64,000 nt of DNA from Treponema sp. UBA1233 (GTDB taxonomy: Bacteria; Spirochaetota; Spirochaetia; Treponematales; Treponemataceae), in NCBI GenBank assembly GCA_002309305.1, contig DBWR01000070.1:87121-151120 (forward strand), written 5' to 3'. Positions 9,768 to 20,871 of the stretch are shown one piece after another. Within the stretch, counting starts at the first letter, position 1. Each line of letters starts with the position of its first letter. Position numbers and translations under genes: made by a program. The notes beneath the pieces are model-generated. The model was not told where the DNA came from. It did not search any database and was given only the letters and a program-made list of their open reading frames with translations.

Positions 9768-10373
9768 CTAATTCTGTAACCATTTGCCATCCATGCCGAA
9801 GTAGGGTGCAGATGGATCAAATATTTCTAACTGCTTGTCCTTTTCCGACAGGATTGGATTTGCTTCCTTAAGCTCGAAAGGCCAGTCTATGGCAAGTTTC
9901 GGGTCATTCCAAATGATTCCACCTTCGTCACCGGGATAGTAGAAGTCACTGCTCTTGTATGCGCAGATGGCGGTGTCGCTTAGTACATAAAAGCCGTGTG
10001 CAAATCCGCATGGAATGTACATCTGGTTTTGTATGTCGGAATCCAGTATTGTGGTAAATGCCTTTCCAAATGTTTTGGAATCATTCCTTAAATCCACGGC
10101 AACGTCAAAAATTTTCCCGCTTACAACCCGAACAAGTTTCCCCTGGGGGTGGTGTTTTTGAAAATGAAGGCCCCGGAGGACCCCTTTTACAGAAAGCGAC
10201 TGATTGTCCTGAACGAAGCTCATCGTCAGGCCGGAGTCAAAGAATTCCTTTTCGTTATATGATTCAATCATGTATCCGCGGGAATCTTTGAATGATTCTG
10301 GGGTAAGCTCATAAAGCCCCTCAATTTTGAGACCATCTGCAAAACAGCCCTTTATCTGAAACGGCAAATTCAA
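9768..10373 (-). CDS. rfbC: dTDP-4-dehydrorhamnose 3,5-epimerase
   Basis: DSRG, QDNQSLS, LRGLHFQ, AHGF motifs. Confidence 0.92.
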
Positions 10374-11245
10374 GATCTCCCGGCTATGAATTTCAGGTAT
10401 TCCCCATAGCTAGTCTTGTAGGTTGCCGCCATATCCAGAAGGTTCTGTCTGTCTATCCATTTGTTCCTGTAGGCAATTTCCTCTATGCAGCTTACATAAA
10501 GTCCCTGACGTTTCTGTATGGTCATTATGAAGTTGGAGGCTTCCATAAGTCCGTCATATGTCCCTGTGTCTAGCCATGCCATGCCACGTCCTAGTAACTG
10601 AACTGAAAGCTTCTTCTGCTCAAGATAAGCGTTGTTCACGGCCGTAATCTCAATTTCCCCGCGAGCCGAAGGGTTTACGTTTTTTGCAATATGAATGACA
10701 GAATTGTCATAAAAGTAAAGGCCAGGTACCGCCCAATTGGATTTTGGGTTCTGGGGTTTTTCTTCAATTCCAATGACTTTATTTGTACTGTCAAATTCAA
10801 CCACACCGTATGCAGTCGGATCCTTTACCTGATATCCGAAAATGACTCCGCCACCTTCAGTTTCGATTTTTGATACGGCGTTATGGAGTATGGGGGTGAA
10901 TGCCTGACCGAAGAAAATGTTGTCTCCAAGCACAAGGGCCACATTGTCATCACCGATGAATTTTTCGCCAACGATAAAGGCGTCCGCAAGTCCCCTTGGT
11001 TTGTCCTGAACCGCATATTCAAATTTCATTCCAAGCCATTTGCCGTCGCCCAAAAGCTCCTTAAAAAGGCCGATGTCGCGTGGAGTTGAGATGACAAGCA
11101 CCTCTCGGATTCCTGCAAGCATAAGGACCGAAAGAGGATAATAAATCATGGGTTTGTCATAGAGGGGCAGTATCTGCTTGGAAACAGCCTTTGTTATGGG
11201 GTACAGACGTGTACCCGAACCTCCCGCAAGAATTATTCCTTTCAT
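10370..11245 (-). CDS. rfbA: Glucose-1-phosphate thymidylyltransferase
   Basis: [28 protein letters not shown]. Confidence 0.97.
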
Positions 11246-11763
11246 AAATCCTCCTTTACTCCTTGTATCTCGTCGTATGCAAGGTCAAATTTTAATGTAC
11301 TGTTGCACAAGTCTAGCTTGACCGTAACCCTCTGCCTCTTGCGGTTAACCTTTATGATGTTGCCCGCAAATCCCATAAGGGGGCCGTCGGTAATCACTAT
11401 GCGCATGTTCTCGTTAAAGTAAGCCTTGGAAATGCCCTGTACCTCGCCGAATTTCCTGAGGTTTGCAAGGTATTCAAGATCCTTTCCCTCCAATTGATGG
11501 ATGTCGGTATTGGACGGAAGAAAATGGTAGAAACTTCTGTTCATGTGCGCCGCTTTTACAATGCCAGGTTCCAGATGACGGATGGAAAGAAACACATATC
11601 CCGGGAAAAGAGCCTGCTCATATTCAAGCTTTTTGGAAGTGCGCATTTTCTTCTTGAAGAAAAAAAGTTCGGCTGTGGCGTCAGATTCATGCAGAACCTT
11701 TTCAAAATCCGCCTTGAACGCCTCTTCCGCTCCCGTTTTGACCATTATGCAGTAATATTCCAT
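11242..11763 (-). CDS. NusG-paralogue antiterminator (LoaP/UpxY/RfaH-like)
   Basis: NGN domain ([15 protein letters not shown]) plus KOW domain ([22 protein letters not shown]); located in a glycan locus. Confidence 0.85.
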
Positions 11764-11841: not shown

Positions 11842-11870
11842 TTGACAGAAAGGGCTTTTTGGCTTAATAT
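11842..11870 (+). promoter_or_regulatory. Sigma70-type promoter for the gmd operon
   Basis: TTGACA-17 nt-TAATAT, about 180 nt upstream of the gmd ATG. Confidence 0.7.
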
Positions 11871-12053
11871 TTAAGGAAACATTCAGTTGTAACTGGCTGT
11901 GATGCACGTTAGGTGCGCAGTCAAGTGCCTCGACCACAGGTCCCATATTGCACGGGCATAGTGCATTTCTACCGAAGGACGTTTTTTTAGGCGTTTTGTA
12001 GGAAAGGGACGAGGTATATTTAAAAATCATTCAACAATCATTTGGAGTAAAAC

Positions 12054-13133
12054 ATGTCTGACAAAATTGCATTGATTACAGGTATTACAGGACAAGACGG
12101 CTCGTTCCTTGCGGAATTCCTTTTGGACAAAGGCTATGAGGTCCACGGAATCATAAGGCGCTCTTCTTCGTTCAACACGGGAAGGATTGAGCACCTCTAC
12201 ATCGCAGATTTGATTGAGGACATGCACAAGGTAAAGCCCGTTCAGCTACATTACGGGGATTTGACGGATTCAGAAAGTCTGATACGCCTTATACGCGAGA
12301 TAAAACCCACGGAAATATACAACCTTGCGGCCCAGAGCCATGTAAAGGTAAGTTTTGACGTTCCCGAGTATACGGCAGACACTGATGCCACAGGAGTCCT
12401 GCGCATTCTGGAAGCAGTTCACTTTTTGGGAATGGAAAAGACATGCCGCATATATCAGGCTTCAACATCGGAACTGTTCGGTCTTGTACAGGAAGTGCCG
12501 CAGAAGGAGACTACTCCTTTTTATCCGCGTTCCCCCTATGCCGTTGCCAAATTATACGGCTACTGGATCATGAAGAATTACCGCGAAAGCTACGGAATGT
12601 TCTGCTCAAACGGAATCCTCTTTAACCATGAGTCGGAGCGCAGGGGAGAGACTTTCGTTACAAGAAAGATTACCCTTGCCGCAAGCCGAATCGCACAGGG
12701 ATTTCAGAAAAAGCTTTACCTTGGAAACCTGAATGCACTCAGGGACTGGGGATATGCAAAGGATTATGTTGAATGCATGTGGCTCATACTTCAGCAGGAC
12801 AAGCCCGATGACTTTGTTGTTGCCACAGGAGAACAGCACTCCGTAAGGGAATTCTGCCTTCTTGCATTCAAGGAAGCCGGAATCGACATAGAATTCCAGG
12901 GAGAGGGTGTTGAGGAAATGGGCATAGACAAAAAGACCGGAAAAGTCCTTATAGAAGTGGACCCCAAGTATTTCCGTCCCGCAGAAGTTGAAACCCTCCT
13001 TGGCGACCCAACAAAGGCAAAATCCGTACTCGGCTGGAACCCCACAAAAACAAGCTTCCCAGAACTGGTCCACATAATGATGCAGCACGACATGGAATAC
13101 GTAAGGAATGAGAGGGTGGTTAGGAACAGGTAA
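12054..13133 (+). CDS. gmd: GDP-mannose 4,6-dehydratase
   Basis: [29 protein letters not shown]. Confidence 0.97.
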
Positions 13134-13136
13134 AAT

Positions 13137-13171
13137 AATGCGTAATGCTAAATGCGTAATGCATAATCAAA
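13137..13171 (+). repeat. Heptamer tandem array, consensus AATGCGT
   Basis: aatgcgt aatgcta aatgcgt aatgcat aatcaaa. Confidence 0.85.
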
Positions 13172-13181
13172 TAAGGGCATA

Positions 13182-13565
13182 ATGAAAACTAGTGATGAGA
13201 ACATAATAGTTGAAAAATCCAAAGCATTCGCATTGCGCATTATTAAGCTATATAAATTCCTTACGGAAAAAAAGAAGGAATTTGTACTTTCAAAACAAGT
13301 CTTAAAAAGCGGGACAAGCATTGGTGCTAATGTTAGAGAAGGAATCAGAGGTCAAACAAAGGCCGATTTTTATGCTAAATTCAATGTTTCATTAAAAGAA
13401 GCTAGTGAGACGGAATACTGGCTGGAGTTACTTAATGAAAGCGGTTATTTAGAAGGTCATGAAAATGATTTTCAAAGTTTATATTCTGACTGTCAGGAAG
13501 TAATAAGAATCTTGATGGCAATTACCAAAACACAGAAAGAGGGTGGAGCTAATTGTAATGTGTGA
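13182..13565 (+). CDS. Four-helix-bundle protein (23S rRNA IVP / TIGR02436-like)
   Basis: KSKAFALRII, LSKQVLKSGTSIGANVREG, SLKEASETEYWLELL. Confidence 0.9.
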   Translation: MKTSDENIIVEKSKAFALRIIKLYKFLTEKKKEFVLSKQVLKSGTSIGANVREGIRGQTKADFYAKFNVSLKEASETEYWLELLNESGYLEGHENDFQSLYSDCQEVIRILMAITKTQKEGGANCNV

Positions 13566-13572
13566 CAATATG

Positions 13573-13607
13573 ATTACGAATTGCGCATTACGAATTACGA
13601 ATTGAAA
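13573..13607 (+). repeat. Heptamer tandem array, consensus ATTACGA, inverted relative to 13137-13171
   Basis: attacga attgcgc attacga attacga attgaaa. Confidence 0.85.
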
Positions 13608-13609
13608 AT

Positions 13610-14587
13610 ATGAATTACAATAATAAAATCTTTGTTGCCGGTCACCGGGGGCTTGTTGGGGGGGCAATCCTCCGCTGCCTGCAGGAAAAGGGATACACAA
13701 ACATAATCACGAGGACACACAAAGAACTGGATCTTTTGAATCAGGCGGCTGTAAATGAATTCTTTGCATCCGAAAAGCCTGAGTATGTCTTTTTGGCGGC
13801 GGCTCATGTTGGCGGAATAGGGGCCAACTCTACCTATCCGGCTGACTTCATATATCAGAATATGGTTATCGGCTTTAATGTTGTTGAGGCGGCTAGGGTA
13901 AATGGGGTAAAAAAACTGATGAACCTTGGCTCAACCTGCATTTATCCCAAAATGGCCGAGCAGCCGATTAAGGAAGAATCCCTTCTGACAGGACCACTGG
14001 AGCCTACCAACGATGCATATGCACTTGCAAAAATAAGCGTGATAAAGCTTTGTACTGCTTATAATAAACAGTATGGCACCAACTATCTAAGCGTGATGCC
14101 GACAAACCTCTACGGTCTGGGGGATAACTATGAGCTTCAGGGAAGCCATGTTTTTCCTGCGATGATACGCAAATTCTACGAAGCGAAGGCAAGCGGTGAG
14201 GATGTGGTTCACCTCTGGGGTGACGGTTCTCCTCTCCGTGAATTCCTTTATGCAGGGGATCTTGCGGATGCAGTGGTTTATCTTATGGAAAACAAGAACG
14301 CCCAGGACCTTCGCACCCCGACTGGAGACTTTGTGAATGTAGGAACCGGACGGGAATGCACGATAAGGGAACTGGCTGAAACAATAGAAGACGTCGTTTA
14401 TGCCGATGTCCGTAAGGGTGGACGCAAGTGCAGGATGGAATGGGACCCGTCAAAACCAAACGGCACCCCACGAAAGCTTTGTGACGTGACAAGGCTAAAT
14501 GCATTGGGCTGGAAGGCAAAGGTTGATGTGCGCGAGGGAATAAAAATCGCCTATGATGATTTCCTCCATGGGAATGTAAGAAAATAA
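13610..14587 (+). CDS. fcl: GDP-L-fucose synthase
   Basis: AGHRGLVG, AAAHVGGI, LGSTCIYPK, YALAK, PTNLYG, WGDGSPLREFL. Confidence 0.95.
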   Translation: MNYNNKIFVAGHRGLVGGAILRCLQEKGYTNIITRTHKELDLLNQAAVNEFFASEKPEYVFLAAAHVGGIGANSTYPADFIYQNMVIGFNVVEAARVNGVKKLMNLGSTCIYPKMAEQPIKEESLLTGPLEPTNDAYALAKISVIKLCTAYNKQYGTNYLSVMPTNLYGLGDNYELQGSHVFPAMIRKFYEAKASGEDVVHLWGDGSPLREFLYAGDLADAVVYLMENKNAQDLRTPTGDFVNVGTGRECTIRELAETIEDVVYADVRKGGRKCRMEWDPSKPNGTPRKLCDVTRLNALGWKAKVDVREGIKIAYDDFLHGNVRK

Positions 14588-14592
14588 GATAT

Positions 14593-16128
14593 ATGCATTT
14601 TTCAAGAATACAGAAAAATAAATTGCATTTTTATACGAAAGCTGCCAGAAATTTGACGGAAGAAGAGCTTGATGCAATATCAGATTTGTTTTCTGAAAAT
14701 TATGGAAAGTATAGTTTAGCAAATAAAAATGAATCTCTAAGAGGTAAGCAGATATCTCTTAAACCAAGTTATTATAAAAGATACATGGTTTCAAATGATT
14801 ATACCTATGTTGCCCTTGCATATTACGATGATGTTCTTGTTGGTCAGGCTTTTTATGTTGTTGAAAATTTCAAACAGGGTAATGCGACATGGGTAATACA
14901 GCTTGTTGTAAAAAAGGAGTTCCGGAAAAACCAAATTGCCAAGAAGCTTTTGTTTTCCATATGGGGATTCTCCAATGATTATGCATGGGGGCTGGCGACA
15001 ACAAATCCTCTTACAATAAAAACTTTGGAATCGGCAACCTTGAGAAAGGTTTCATTAACAAAAATGAAACAGAATATCAAGGTAATAAAACAATTGTCAA
15101 GCAAAGTGAATTTTATTTCCCAAGAAGAAATATTCATCACGGAGAACAATTCTGTGGTAAATTCCAGCTATTATGTCAGCCATGATGATATTCCTAATTA
15201 TATCTCAAAATATGGAGATGAATGGGTTTTCGGAAATCTGGAGGAAGGCTTTGAATGGCTTGCATTTACTTTTAGGGGACAGGAAATAAAGAAGCTTTCA
15301 AAACAGGATTTTGATAATTTTATTGAGTATTCTGAAAGCAGATTGATAGATGCTTATTCAAGAATGGAGATGATAACTCAGCCATGGACAAAGCATACAG
15401 CAGAAGAGATTGAGTTCATAAAGCAATACATTTCGGATAAATCAGCCCGTATAATGGATATGGGGTGTGGGACTGCAAGACATATAGCGGAATTATACAA
15501 ACAAGGATACAAAAATATAAATGGATATGATTTTTCTGAAAATTTGATTACCCAGGCAAAAAAGAATTATCCTGAAATCCAGGACAATCTTTCAATTAGC
15601 GATTGTAGAAATCTTAAGTGTAAGAGCAAAGCTGATGTCATTTTATGTCTTTATGACGTTATAGGTTCTTTTCCCAAAGAGAAAGACAACATAAATATAA
15701 TAAAGGCTGCTAGACGAAACTTGAAAAAAAATGGCATTTTTATTTGTTCTGTCATGAATATGCATCTTACAGAAAACATATGCAAATACAAATTTGATGT
15801 CTATTCTGATCCTAAAAGGCTTTTCAAATTAAGGGCATCACAAATAATGCAAAAATCAGGGAATATTTTTAATCCTGAAAATTTTGTAATAGATACAAAG
15901 ACGGGACTTGTATTCAGAAAGGAGATATTTAAAGATGATGGCTTTTTGGATTCTGAATACATTATTCGCGATAAACGTTATAGGCTGAATGAGATAAAAT
16001 CTTTGTTAAAGGAAAATGGTTTTATTGTTCTTGATTCTCGTTTTGTTCGAGCTGGAAGGTTTGACAATCCTCTAAAAGCCACGGACTTGGATGCAAAAGA
16101 AATATTAATAGTTGCAAGAAAGAAATAG
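14593..16128 (+). CDS. GNAT-like plus class I SAM methyltransferase fusion protein
   Basis: N-half has GNAT motif A-like QLVVKKEFRKNQIAKKLL; C-half has MDMGCGTARH, YDFS and LCLYDVIG. Confidence 0.7.
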   Translation: MHFSRIQKNKLHFYTKAARNLTEEELDAISDLFSENYGKYSLANKNESLRGKQISLKPSYYKRYMVSNDYTYVALAYYDDVLVGQAFYVVENFKQGNATWVIQLVVKKEFRKNQIAKKLLFSIWGFSNDYAWGLATTNPLTIKTLESATLRKVSLTKMKQNIKVIKQLSSKVNFISQEEIFITENNSVVNSSYYVSHDDIPNYISKYGDEWVFGNLEEGFEWLAFTFRGQEIKKLSKQDFDNFIEYSESRLIDAYSRMEMITQPWTKHTAEEIEFIKQYISDKSARIMDMGCGTARHIAELYKQGYKNINGYDFSENLITQAKKNYPEIQDNLSISDCRNLKCKSKADVILCLYDVIGSFPKEKDNINIIKAARRNLKKNGIFICSVMNMHLTENICKYKFDVYSDPKRLFKLRASQIMQKSGNIFNPENFVIDTKTGLVFRKEIFKDDGFLDSEYIIRDKRYRLNEIKSLLKENGFIVLDSRFVRAGRFDNPLKATDLDAKEILIVARKK

Positions 16129-16166
16129 AGCTTTTTAAGATTAAAGATTAAGGATATTTTGACTGT

Positions 16167-17039
16167 ATGATGGAAAAAGATAGTATTACAAAAAATGATG
16201 ATGCTCAGTGGACAAAGGTAATTACCGCAAAGAGGCGGCTTTTGGACCTGCACCTTAAGGATGTGTGGGATTACCGCTACCTTATAAAAAGGTTCATAAA
16301 GCGTGATTTTGTGGTCCAGTACAAGCAGACTATTCTGGGACCCTTGTGGTATGTCATACAGCCGCTACTGTCATCCATCATGTACATCTTTGTCTTCGGT
16401 AATCTGGCCGGAATAGGTACGGACGGGGTGCCTTCGATTCTGTTTTACTTCGGCGGAACAATGCTTTGGACCTTTTTTACGGGTACAGTTTTGGGGGGAT
16501 CAAATGTATTCCTTAATAACAAGGATGTATTCGGAAAGGTTTATTTCCCCAGGCTTACCGTTCCAATAAGCATAGCGGCAGGACTTGTCATAAAGCTTTT
16601 GATTCAATTTGCCCTCTTGGTCTGCATATACCTTTACCTTATCATTCGGGGTGTCCATGTTTATCCGACATGGTGGGCTTTTTCGTTCCCGCTCATCGTC
16701 CTATGGATTGGAGTTTTGGGAACGAGTCTGGGGCTTATCATTTCCTCCCTTACGACAAAATACCGCGACCTAAAGCTGGTTGTTGATTTTGGAATTCAGC
16801 TTGCCATGTATGCGACTCCTGTGGTTTACCCCCTGAGTGAGGCTCCAAAGAAATTCTTCTGGCTCTTTTACATAAATCCCATGAGTGCTCCGATTGAAAC
16901 ATTCCGAATCTGCTTTTATGGGGCCGGCTCTGTTCCGCTTTCAATGATTCTAATAAGCCTGGGAACCACCTTCCTTCTGGCATTCCTGGGCCTGGTCCTC
17001 TTTACCCGCAACGAACGCAACTTTGTGGATGTGATTTAG
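16167..17039 (+). CDS. wzm: Polysaccharide ABC transporter permease
   Basis: RDFVVQYKQTILGPLW, KVYFPR, YATPVVYP, NPMS. Confidence 0.92.
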   Translation: MMEKDSITKNDDAQWTKVITAKRRLLDLHLKDVWDYRYLIKRFIKRDFVVQYKQTILGPLWYVIQPLLSSIMYIFVFGNLAGIGTDGVPSILFYFGGTMLWTFFTGTVLGGSNVFLNNKDVFGKVYFPRLTVPISIAAGLVIKLLIQFALLVCIYLYLIIRGVHVYPTWWAFSFPLIVLWIGVLGTSLGLIISSLTTKYRDLKLVVDFGIQLAMYATPVVYPLSEAPKKFFWLFYINPMSAPIETFRICFYGAGSVPLSMILISLGTTFLLAFLGLVLFTRNERNFVDVI

Positions 17040-18066: not shown

Positions 18067-19302
18067 ATGACCAACGACATCGCAATAAAAGTAGAAAACC
18101 TCTCAAAATACTATCGTTTGGGTGTGATAAACAACGGGACCCTTTTCCGCGATATACAGAGCTGGTGGGCAAGAAAGAGGGGAAAGGATGACCCTCATGC
18201 TAAGATTGGAAGCAAGTATGATCCCACTGCGGAGGGGTTCTGGGCGCTAAAGGACTTAAATTTTGAGATAAAGAAGGGCGACAGGGTTGGCATCATCGGA
18301 CACAACGGAGCCGGAAAATCAACCCTTCTCAAGCTTTTAAGTCAGATAACAAGTCCGACGGAAGGTAATATAAAAATCAACGGAAAAATTGCGAGCCTTC
18401 TGGAAGTAGGAACCGGATTCCATCCTGAGATGACGGGCCGAGAGAACATCTACATGAACGGTGCCATCCTTGGCATGAAGCACGATGAGATTGACAAGAA
18501 GGTAAACGACATAATTGAGTTCTCTGAAATAGGCGAGCATATCGACACTCCTGTAAAAAGGTACTCCAGCGGTATGTATGTAAGACTTGCCTTTGCGGTT
18601 GCGGCCCATCTTGATAGTGATATTTTGATTGCAGACGAGGTGCTTGCGGTCGGTGATGCTGCTTTTCAGAAGAAGGCTTTGGGGAAGATGAACGAGCTGA
18701 GCTCCGGTGAGGGACGGACGGTTTTGTTTGTGTCGCACAATATGGCGCAGGTAAAGAATCTGTGCAACAAGGGGATTGTGCTGGAGAAGGGAAAGATTGT
18801 TAAAAGCGGGGAGATTGAGGAGTGTATTCATTCATATCTAAATTATACAGATAATTTTAATTACAATTGTTGGAAGAATAACGGTTTATACAATAATGAG
18901 TATTTTTCACCACTTTCTTTAAGGGTTTTGGAGCCAAATGGCAATATGGTTTCAGGTGAATTAATTCCAAATGCAAAATACAAAATTGAACTTGTTTATT
19001 CTGTAAAAAGAATTGAAAGATTTGTAGATTTTTGGATACTATTTCGTATTGGTGATACTGAAATATTTAGAATTTATGAAATGAATCCAGGTCAACATGT
19101 TAATTCGGATGGTTTTGCTGTGTGTAGCTATGATATTCCACAATATTATGTTTTAAATGGTATGGAATATGAGGTCTTATTAGGTGCTTCTATAAAAAAT
19201 ACAAAATGGATCATAAATCCTTTTAATAAAGATGTTGTTTTTAAAATTAAAATCAAGTTTCAAAAAGAGATTCTGCCTGATAGTTTTTTAATTATGAAAT
19301 AA
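18067..19302 (+). CDS. wzt: Polysaccharide ABC transporter ATPase with C-terminal Wzt_C-like domain
   Basis: GHNGAGKST, YSSGMYVRLAF, IADEVLAVGD, VSHN. Confidence 0.93.
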   Translation: MTNDIAIKVENLSKYYRLGVINNGTLFRDIQSWWARKRGKDDPHAKIGSKYDPTAEGFWALKDLNFEIKKGDRVGIIGHNGAGKSTLLKLLSQITSPTEGNIKINGKIASLLEVGTGFHPEMTGRENIYMNGAILGMKHDEIDKKVNDIIEFSEIGEHIDTPVKRYSSGMYVRLAFAVAAHLDSDILIADEVLAVGDAAFQKKALGKMNELSSGEGRTVLFVSHNMAQVKNLCNKGIVLEKGKIVKSGEIEECIHSYLNYTDNFNYNCWKNNGLYNNEYFSPLSLRVLEPNGNMVSGELIPNAKYKIELVYSVKRIERFVDFWILFRIGDTEIFRIYEMNPGQHVNSDGFAVCSYDIPQYYVLNGMEYEVLLGASIKNTKWIINPFNKDVVFKIKIKFQKEILPDSFLIMK

Positions 19303-19335
19303 ATTTGGTGAGAATTTTTTTTTTAGGAAATAAAT

Positions 19336-20871
19336 ATGCCGAATATTTTTGTTTTTTCTAAAAATTTAAAACTTTCTTCTTTTTCTTTGATAGCCAATCA
19401 ATTTAAAAAGGCAGATAGTAATATTTTTATCACAACACATTTTTTATTTCAAAATGAAAGAGAAGAATTGGATTCTATGGTTAATAATACTAGCTATTAC
19501 ACTTTTTCTGATTTTCTAACTGATGAAGCGGCAAAAAATTGTGATATTAATTCATTTGATTCTAATAATTTAAACTTAAATGACTATTATTCCAATATTA
19601 AGAGAAATAAAAATTTATTGGTGCTAGAAAAAGTTAAAAAAAGCTTCTCTGAATACTCAGGTTTTGTATTATCAGATGATTTAGGCATAGAAGAGTATGT
19701 ATGGCTTGATGCTGGTTTTATTCCTATTTCGGGACAATATTATTATAATACTTCAAGAAAAAATGATGATAAGGATGGAATTTGTTTCATAAAAAAAATT
19801 AGAAAAGCTTTAAGTTATTCAAAATTATTGGAAAAACTTTATCATTTCCTTAAAATGAAGTTAAAGTTGTGTAAGAATAGAACTAAAAAAACTATTGTTC
19901 CTGTTGAAGTATTTTTGCAGAATGAGAAAAAATATATATTTATTGGAAAACTACAACGTTTGTTACCTTATTTGAATATTTCATTGACAACATGTGAAAA
20001 AGAAAAGGAAAAAGTTAACAAGAAGAAGTATTATACTTCAAAAGAAAATGTCATTTATATTATGACTATGCATGAAGCTGGTACAATCTCAATTCCAGAC
20101 TCTCCAGAATACGATGTAAGATTTGTTCAAGATGGTTATTTACCTCCTAATTATTCTGCTTTAAACTTAAGGTTTAAGCCCGCCAATGTAAAGTATTATG
20201 CATTAGACAAAATTGGTAAAATGGCTTATGAGGCTCAGAATGTTCCAGTTGAAATCTTACCTTTCAGAAAAAAGAACTATTTACCTAAACCAGATTTTTC
20301 AGTTAAATTGAAAAAAGTTCTTATTACTGCTACTTGTGCAGGACCCTGGTCAGCACTTATAAATCCTAGTGATGATGATATATTAGTAGACGCTATTGTT
20401 AAATCTGCAAAGAAATATCCTGATATTACATTTGTTTATCGTCCACATCCAGCCTGTGTTCATCCTATGCATACAGGTGTTAATACCATTAATAGAATTG
20501 CTGAATATTTTGAGTATACAAAACTTCAAAATTTGAAACTTTCAACTAATATACCACAGCAAAATATGCAGTCATTTTCACTTACATTCTCAAATACAAG
20601 TTTAATAGAAGATATAAAAGAAGCAGATTTAATCATAAGTGAGTATTCACATTCCCTTATTGAAGGGGCTGAAATAGGAAAATTATTTGCAACTGTGAAT
20701 TTAACGAAACGAAGAAATTTTTATGAGGCTATAACCGATTTAGGATTTCCTCATTGTAAAACAATCAATGAACTTTGGGATTTTATAGATAATGTTAATT
20801 CTCAAGATTTTATAAATAAATATACTCAAGCAATAAATAATTACAATGTTATGCTCGATATGGAGGAATAA
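19336..20871 (+). CDS. Putative GT-B glycosyltransferase (capsule-synthesis / sialyl- or Kdo-transferase-like C-terminus)
   Basis: QDGY, VYRPHP and ADLIISEYSHSLIEG motifs in the C-half; N-half not recognised. Confidence 0.45.
   Translation: MPNIFVFSKNLKLSSFSLIANQFKKADSNIFITTHFLFQNEREELDSMVNNTSYYTFSDFLTDEAAKNCDINSFDSNNLNLNDYYSNIKRNKNLLVLEKVKKSFSEYSGFVLSDDLGIEEYVWLDAGFIPISGQYYYNTSRKNDDKDGICFIKKIRKALSYSKLLEKLYHFLKMKLKLCKNRTKKTIVPVEVFLQNEKKYIFIGKLQRLLPYLNISLTTCEKEKEKVNKKKYYTSKENVIYIMTMHEAGTISIPDSPEYDVRFVQDGYLPPNYSALNLRFKPANVKYYALDKIGKMAYEAQNVPVEILPFRKKNYLPKPDFSVKLKKVLITATCAGPWSALINPSDDDILVDAIVKSAKKYPDITFVYRPHPACVHPMHTGVNTINRIAEYFEYTKLQNLKLSTNIPQQNMQSFSLTFSNTSLIEDIKEADLIISEYSHSLIEGAEIGKLFATVNLTKRRNFYEAITDLGFPHCKTINELWDFIDNVNSQDFINKYTQAINNYNVMLDMEE

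Follow-up and report, generated by a model that had tools for sequence, protein, structure and literature searches.

A probable intervening-sequence-type cassette, a four-helix-bundle gene between inverted heptamer arrays, in the gmd-fcl operon junction of Treponema

Several parts of the element described here are already known, namely the PF05635 protein family and its occurrence in the intervening sequences (IVSs) of rRNA genes, the heptamers of the Coxiella IVS, the excision of IVSs by RNase III, the hairpins of the short tandemly repeated repetitive (STRR) sequences, and the protein Avd of the diversity-generating retroelements (DGRs). In the 23S IVS of Coxiella, three tandem copies of GACAGAT precede the open reading frame (ORF) for the PF05635 protein, termed S23p, and RNase III makes its 5′ cut at the first of these repeats (PMC4990558). 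The same paper mentions, with reference to Lin 2006, a homopentamer for XCC0516. The cyanobacterial STRR sequences are 7-bp tandem repeats between operon genes, which are capable of forming hairpins and are of unknown function (PMC2670836), whereas Avd, which has a homologous four-helix-bundle fold, forms a pentameric barrel and binds a defined RNA element adjacent to the gene that encodes it (PMC10053308). Here we analysed a 64-kb stretch of DNA from Treponema sp. UBA1233 (contig DBWR01000070.1), referred to as the window, in which the spacer between the genes gmd and fcl holds a four-helix-bundle gene enclosed by two inverted arrays of heptamers. This segment (window 13134-13609) is probably an inserted cassette of the IVS type, consisting of a PF05635 gene between inverted arrays of about five heptamers, which sits in an mRNA operon junction. 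The unit of array, ORF and inverted array recurs across phyla, co-oriented with and abutting the neighbouring genes.

The gmd-fcl spacer comprises 476 nt and is filled by a 5′ array, an ORF of 127 residues and an inverted 3′ array; all the parts proposed in the initial annotation are present at the coordinates it had given. The TAA stop codon of gmd (13131-13133) immediately adjoins the cassette, and the cassette ORF shares its strand with both gmd and fcl. The features of the locus are as follows.

11842-11871, + strand: promoter-like site TTGACA-17-TAATAT located 5′ of gmd, a consensus match only, from which the transcript with the cassette is likely to start
12054-13133, + strand: gmd (GDP-mannose 4,6-dehydratase), the upstream host gene, PF16363 with an E-value of 5e-151
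13134-13168, + strand: 5′ heptamer array of the (TAATGCG) type, ~4.6 units, with the core called by Tandem Repeats Finder at 13136-13167
13173-13177, + strand: putative ribosome-binding site AAGGG of the cassette ORF, 4 nt 5′ of its ATG, as read from the sequence
13182-13565, + strand: gene of the 127-residue four-helix-bundle protein (PF05635/TIGR02436; S23p/Avd-like family)
13227-13244, + strand: segment within the ORF complementary to the 5′ array at 16 of 18 positions, which rivals the arm-arm stem in the window copy
13573-13603, + strand: 3′ heptamer array of the (ATTACGA) type, ~4.4 units, inverted relative to the 5′ array
13610-14587, + strand: fcl (GDP-L-fucose synthase), the downstream host gene, PF01370 with an E-value of 3.5e-63

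Analysis with Tandem Repeats Finder revealed that 13136-13167 and 13573-13603 are the sole period-7 arrays of at least four copies in the 64 kb. The 5′ array belongs to the (KCGNAAT)n type, as do the arrays upstream of the relatives. The two arrays are mutually inverted, and the arms are complementary at 78% over 36 nt and at 84% over 25 nt. The reverse complement of 13572-13600 matches 13140-13168 with exactly 22 of 29 Watson-Crick pairs plus one G-U pair, in agreement with the earlier count, and none of 200 shuffled spacers reached 22 pairs, the best one having 19. The distance between the 3′ array and fcl needs correction: the array had been described as stopping 2 nt before the ATG of fcl, but its final clean ATT ends at 13603, 6 nt before this codon. 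A search of window 12900-13800 against Rfam returned no family at E-values up to 1.

The 127-residue protein matches PF05635 with an E-value of 3.5e-27 (95.1 bits over a cut-off of 33.8) and TIGR02436 with an E-value of 1e-30 (106.1 bits over a cut-off of 24); its profile matches are limited to these two families, and no nuclease or recombinase motif was seen. Residues 5-120 match PDB 2RLD, a Bacteroides thetaiotaomicron protein whose entry contains five chains, with an E-value of 3.7e-34. The isoelectric point (pI) of the cassette protein is 7.7, which is not strongly basic. The ratio of nonsynonymous to synonymous substitution rates, calculated against the alleles at the same gmd-fcl site, is 0.026-0.089, which indicates that the ORF is under purifying selection and functional. 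Moreover, the identical protein occurs on 15 contigs. Ten further contigs that encode it all have the order gmd-ORF-fcl, with equal unit numbers and arrays that differ by point changes alone, so the cassette is stable within this species; the genes after fcl differ among these contigs. A hypervariable unit number, as seen in Coxiella strains, was ruled out since the ten contigs share their unit counts. Comparison of the arrays at locus L421 with those of the window showed that the within-species changes mostly fall at the K/M positions (AATGCGT to AATTCGT, ACGAATT to ACGCATT), which are also the positions that vary between units, suggesting a recurrent G/T toggle. We also rejected an identity as a defence or phage protein, as neither PADLOC nor PHROG gave a hit. 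Phage collections contain few members of the family, namely one IMG/VR locus, found by pattern, and two INPHARED records; these two phage-record homologues, as sampled, have no heptamer arrays.

With one genome scanned per species, at least 486 relatives were found, of which the best 80 (62-78% identity) were combined with the window into a set of 81 loci. The 80 relatives come from Spirochaetota, Bacteroidota, Bacillota, Victivallales, Planctomycetota and Myxococcota. Within 150 nt up- and downstream of the ORF, 57 of the 81 loci possess (KCGNAAT)n upstream and (ATTNCGM)n downstream in inverted arrangement, and the opposite polarity was found in none; the remaining loci mostly have a single array, or two in direct orientation. 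The arrays have a median length of 35-36 nt with an interquartile range of 34-38, and a modal number of five units, which is found in 34/57 upstream and 39/57 downstream arrays. In 49/57 loci, the heptamers of both arms have the same variable triplet (CGT, CGG, CGC, CAT, AGG and others). The flanking genes are mostly co-oriented with the ORF, both upstream (68/75) and downstream (65/79). In addition, the host stop codon overlaps or abuts the first 5′ unit, at a median of −4 nt from the array, and the ATG of the downstream host gene lies a median of 14 nt past the 3′ array, leaving room for a ribosome-binding site only. Flanks of inverted heptamer arrays, which the initial annotation had proposed to look for around the homologues, are thus found in these 57 close relatives and in 10 of the 12 distant members described below.

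The cassette protein is 62-78% identical across six phyla, compared to only 58-60% for fcl between Treponema and Firmicutes, suggesting that the cassette gene has moved horizontally. This spread fits the earlier proposal of a mobile unit without a transposase, as far as horizontal movement without a recombinase is concerned. Two further interpretations of the arrays were rejected. A role as an inward three-frame stop-codon insulator holds for the TAATKCG type, but among 13 unrelated heptamer types seven are for it, two against and four tie, which is not significant. The CRISPR-like “arrays of arrays” at three loci (L009, L070 and L011) turned out to be either tandem repeats of a higher order (83 and 93 nt) or genes duplicated in tandem together with the array, and not repeat-spacer arrays. 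In L070 (2920-3484) and L009 (1954-2403), the heptamer arrays lie within 93- and 83-nt tandem repeats of seven and about six copies, respectively, and the number of heptamers differs between the repeat copies, which demonstrates slippage in the arrays.

We further sampled 12 distant members (34-53% identity) in collections of plasmids, phages and viruses. Inverted heptamer arrays are present on both sides of the gene in 10 of the 12, and their units are unrelated, as seen in the following six.

Nostoc: upstream GTCGGAR, downstream YTCCGAC
Bernardetia: upstream TTAGTGA, downstream TCACTAA
Euhalothece: upstream ACCAGTG, downstream CACTGGT
Chlorohelix: upstream ATGAAGG, downstream TTCATAA
Planktothrix: upstream AATCCCC and AATCGTA, downstream ACGATTT and GGGATTT
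Gloeocapsa: upstream ATTTTAG, downstream ATCTAAA

The arrays beside the four-helix-bundle genes on the Nostoc, Planktothrix and Euhalothece plasmids resemble STRR sequences. Similar to the window cassette, the distant cassettes also sit in operon junctions, such as hsdS-ORF-hsdR, helicase-ORF-methylase (twice), csx2-ORF-cas1, DUF1156-ORF-HEPN and RND adaptor-ORF-RND pump. Four of the 12 (L164, L165, L170 and L173, on plasmids of Chlorohelix, Planktothrix, Monoglobus and Gloeocapsa) are inside restriction-modification or other defence operons, at the junctions helicase-ORF-N6 methylase (two cases), hsdS-ORF-hsdR and DUF1156-ORF-Swt1 HEPN; an in-frame stop interrupts the Monoglobus copy. The cassette between csx2 and cas1 is found on a Pseudanabaena plasmid (L172). 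In a large CRISPR-association screen, “23S rRNA IVP” appears among the genes linked to the adaptation module (PMC10910872). This link may reflect the insertion of cassettes into cas operons, or arrays read as CRISPR-like, rather than a function in CRISPR.

Scanning for the GACAGAT array retrieved two complete 23S rRNA genes (L294 and L341, from Rhodospirillales and Burkholderiales genomes; Rfam large-subunit scores of 2636 and 2457 bits), each of which contains a PF05635 ORF with a (GACAGAT)n array on one side and an (ATCTGTC)n array on the other, of 5-6 units each. Both IVSs are predicted to fold with the stem closed. These bona fide 23S rRNA genes show the same build of array, ORF and inverted array, which bears out the term “IVS-like cassette” used in the initial annotation. 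The ORF-containing 23S IVS and the window cassette thus share one build in different host RNAs.

The history of the junction was traced by comparison of 80 fcl loci. In many Treponema, gmd and fcl are only 2-4 nt apart (AGATAA-TT-ATG), and at least six Treponema have empty gmd-TAATTATG-fcl alleles in which the two genes are separated by 2 nt; the empty sites that had been suggested for comparison therefore exist. The filled site of the window reads AGGTAA/AATAATGCG...GAAAAT/ATG, compared to AGATAA-TT-ATG at the empty site, and window 13134-13609 is an insertion relative to the sister Treponema genomes. The fcl of the window is 94% identical to that of T. bryantii, which marks the host as a rumen-type Treponema. 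Besides the window, a four-helix-bundle cassette occupies the junction in three species (L096, L102 and L104), and ORF-less junctions with only a short heptamer array were found at L108, L137-L139 and L093. Three of these loci, L096 with the cassette, L108 with an array only and the empty L140, are mutual nearest relatives with flanks of 85-87% nucleotide identity, which indicates that the cassette was gained or lost among related species.

The gmd-fcl junction (L081-L143; window 13131-13612) is also an insertion hotspot for other genes. Four species have a HicB/HicA toxin-antitoxin pair at this position (L087, L106, L109 and L110), and other inserts comprise a 307-residue ORF (L091), two-ORF inserts (L082 and L088), an acetyltransferase-like pseudogene (L107) and plain hairpins (L083, L098 and L131). 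The spacers of L143 (248 nt) and L093 (78 nt) have inverted heptamer arms and no recognisable ORF, and may be decayed or non-autonomous cassettes. The arms of L143, (ACAGATT)x3 and (AATCTGT)x2, belong to the heptamer family of the rRNA IVS arrays. A different repeat of ~40-nt units, GGGACATTGCTTCGCTCGTCC, fills the spacer of L118, about 258 nt 5′ of fcl; this locus also has a long (AATGAAT/GGTGAAT) heptamer array (502-614) beside a 54%-identical four-helix-bundle gene, 5′ of gmd.

In the reading we favour, the cassette would have neither promoter nor terminator of its own and would be transcribed together with gmd and fcl. No terminator-like site was found inside the cassette and the promoter-like site lies 5′ of gmd, so co-transcription would be the simplest reading. 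Once transcribed, the paired arrays would form a long imperfect stem that loops the cassette out and rejoins the host stop codon with the ribosome site of the next gene, as in the empty allele. RNase III could cut such a stem, by analogy with the rRNA IVSs and specifically with that of Coxiella. The encoded protein, whose solved relatives form a homopentameric ring and whose DGR relative Avd binds RNA, probably acts on the arrays. The element would spread horizontally as a unit and might persist because it is nearly harmless at operon junctions. Folding predictions for the 57 loci with inverted arrays agree with the stem, with arm-arm duplexes averaging −34.1 kcal/mol compared to −8.0 kcal/mol for shuffled arms, and with at least 15 arm-arm pairs in the minimum free energy (MFE) structure of the whole cassette in 51/57 loci. 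The earlier claim that the arrays can form a stem looping out the ORF is thereby supported for the relatives, but not for the window copy itself. The part of the reading that involves stem, cleavage and excision is plausible for the family and weakest for the window copy.

Several observations weigh against this reading. At −18.7 to −21.4 kcal/mol, the arm-arm duplex of the window copy is weak, and most of its units contain a G.A mismatch. Its MFE structure has no arm-arm pairs, forcing the stem costs +6.9 kcal/mol, and the ensemble has 0.04 expected arm-arm pairs; the 5′ array pairs instead with 13227-13244 in the ORF, at −24.7 kcal/mol. The stem of this copy seems to have decayed, which makes RNA processing the least certain step at this locus. 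Register-specific covariation between the arms was tried and rejected, as the observed identity of 0.758 at the variable positions compares to 0.769 for unit-order shuffles, 885 of 1000 of which reach the observed value. Only the heptamer type co-varies between the arms, and without register-specific complementarity, pairing may not be the sole selected property; the stem by itself accounts neither for the 7-nt periodicity nor for the polarity of 57:0. RNase III cleavage is on record for rRNA IVSs only, for example in Coxiella (PMC4990558). As for the route of insertion, no target-site duplication is visible between filled and empty junctions, and no recombinase was seen for the cassette. To the same side belong the numerous solo arrays and their orientation, which are considered with the alternatives below. 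Separately, a riboswitch-like toggle in which the 5′ array pairs with the ORF was rejected as a general feature, the pairing energy being −17.1 kcal/mol in the 57 loci and −17.4 kcal/mol after shuffling.

Pattern searches found 130 (ATTMCGM)/AATTMCG arrays in more than 15 phyla, many of them in Nostocales, where identical AATTACG arrays are common; only 6/130 adjoin a gene of the family, and likewise 5/122 GACAGAT arrays adjoin a four-helix-bundle ORF. The solo arrays are found in spacers of every kind, be they co-oriented, convergent or divergent, and favour neither strand with respect to transcription (15 vs 19). Nearly every gene thus has arrays but most arrays are geneless, which the initial annotation had not anticipated. 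This relation resembles the repetitive extragenic palindromic sequences and their associated tyrosine transposases (REP/RAYT) and motivates a two-component DNA system as an alternative. In such a system, the pentamer would serve as the binding or propagation factor of dispersed heptamer arrays, with one subunit per heptamer, and RNA pairing would be incidental. The modal array of five units beside the pentameric state of the solved relatives and the strict polarity of 57:0 also agree with this explanation, and it remains a candidate because the arms share unit type but not register and the solo arrays outnumber the genes. We nevertheless consider it doubtful, since no catalytic activity is known for the family, neither a nuclease or recombinase motif nor target-site duplications were seen, and the protein is not strongly basic. 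Moreover, the heptamers are wholly different between lineages although the proteins are still 37-50% identical, so that sequence-specific recognition would need repeated co-evolution. In favour of the IVS-type cassette, 6/9 arrays in 505 kb of array-poor Treponema DNA adjoin one of six four-helix-bundle genes, and the arrays therefore travel with the ORF.

The arrays could also be an intercistronic hairpin that serves the host, similar to STRR, through transcript stabilisation or translation coupling, with the ORF as a chance passenger in the loop. Such roles have been credited to the STRR hairpins between hupS and hupL (PMC2670836). Nineteen ORF-less array hairpins with loops of 15-172 nt were found, the gmd-fcl spacers of L108 and L137-L139 hold arrays only, and the cassette arrays adjoin the host stop codon and ribosome-binding site, all of which would suit this role. 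It is improbable, however, as most sister Treponema have no spacer at all between gmd and fcl beyond 2 nt, the ORF is strongly conserved and the stem of the window copy is weak. The content of the loop also argues against a chance passenger: we tried to find other gene types in array pairs and rejected them, as pairs 410-491 nt apart enclose this family only, and wider pairs bracket ordinary genes in array-rich genomes. Less probable still is a classical DNA transposon or miniature inverted-repeat transposable element with repetitive terminal inverted repeats, mobilised in trans by an unlinked transposase. Inverted ends, patchy distribution and empty sites would be expected of such an element, but the filled and empty junctions show no target-site duplication, the lengths and unit numbers of the ends vary, and no linked transposase was found in 93 sampled loci. 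In addition, the ends are lineage-specific tandem heptamers, which no known transposase family requires.

A broader proposal can be put forward tentatively. PF05635 pentamers might be the cognate partners of tandem-heptamer arrays across bacteria, each subunit matching one 7-nt unit, which would account for the roughly five units per arm. The gene together with its arrays would then be the autonomous form of a widespread selfish repeat, the solo arrays and ORF-less hairpins (STRR) its non-autonomous progeny, and the insertions in rRNA the classical IVSs. If true, a single mechanism would cover the function of the S23p/IVS protein, the origin of rRNA IVSs and the STRR repeats.

The surroundings of the cassette (window 10370-11763 on the − strand and 14593-17039) resemble a surface-polysaccharide gene cluster, including rfbA, which looks like a glucose-1-phosphate thymidylyltransferase gene. 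A gene of the NusG/KOW family (PF02357, PF00467) is divergent from gmd, and fcl is followed by a GNAT-methyltransferase fusion and then by an apparent ABC-2-type permease. The highest Tandem Repeats Finder score in the window belongs to a T-rich repeat of 31-nt units (19284-19356, 2.3 copies) with an ATG and an AGGAAA motif, which is unrelated to the cassette.

Among open-access papers and preprints, we found none that describes inverted heptamer arrays as the regular flanks of PF05635 genes, although an earlier description elsewhere is possible. Nor did we find one that places the same element in mRNAs, or one that links STRR-type repeats to PF05635. The heptamer strings, or a link between the family and heptamers, were met in the open-access literature in the Coxiella IVS paper alone (PMC4990558). 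The rRNA IVSs, their S23p ORF and the cyanobacterial heptamers have been unexplained for some 30 years, and the present comparisons point to one widespread type of element that resides in the helices of rRNA and much more frequently at the junctions of operons, with many such sites inside restriction-modification and CRISPR operons. The cassette provides a testable ligand hypothesis for a protein family that has thousands of members and several structures solved but no known function, and links this family to its one characterised relative, Avd, which binds RNA next to its own gene. It also accounts for a “hypothetical” gene that repeatedly interrupts operons in annotation, and may explain why the family scores as CRISPR-associated.

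In layout, the cassette can be compared to several known systems. Eukaryotic foldback transposons have long inverted arms made of short tandem repeats around a loop that may be coding; compared to the cassette, they are of kilobase scale and have transposase-bearing partners. In REP/RAYT systems, a small gene lies between two inverted short repeats, and the repeat is otherwise scattered intergenically in far larger numbers, often as hairpin pairs. RAYT is a Y1 (HUH) nuclease and the REPs are single palindromic units, whereas the cassette gene belongs to PF05635, without known catalytic activity, and its repeats are tandem heptamer arrays, so the likeness is one of layout only. Avd shares a homologous four-helix-bundle fold with the cassette protein; unlike the latter, with its pI of 7.7, it is described as positively charged. 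No reverse transcriptase ORF was found within 3 kb on either side of the cassette and no template or variable repeat nearby, its neighbours being gmd, fcl, the methyltransferase/GNAT fusion and the ABC-2 permease, so the locus lacks this hallmark of a DGR. The window arrays resemble STRR in being tandem 7-bp repeats that are intergenic and hairpin-capable; the STRR class is cyanobacterial and described as repeats only, whereas the host here is a Treponema and the arrays enclose a gene.

The closest counterparts are the ORF-containing 23S IVSs of the type found in Leptospira, Coxiella, Brucella and Xanthomonas. They and the cassette both encode a PF05635 S23p protein in the sense direction of the host transcript, and both have a patchy distribution consistent with horizontal acquisition. 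Tandem heptamer arrays in inverted orientation bound both as well; these number about 5-6 units in the two 23S IVSs found here, and Coxiella has three GACAGAT copies (PMC4990558). They differ in the heptamer, which is TAATKCG in the cassette and GACAGAT in the IVSs, and in the stem, which is weak in the window copy. Compared to the decaying ORF of the Coxiella IVS, that of the cassette is clearly maintained by purifying selection. The host RNA differs as well, being the gmd-fcl mRNA spacer for the cassette and helix 45 or 25 of 23S rRNA for the IVSs. Altogether, the window cassette seems to be of the same kind as the 23S IVS, because both consist of a PF05635 ORF between inverted heptamer arrays, and is set apart from the rRNA IVS proper by its location outside rRNA, the defining feature of that class.

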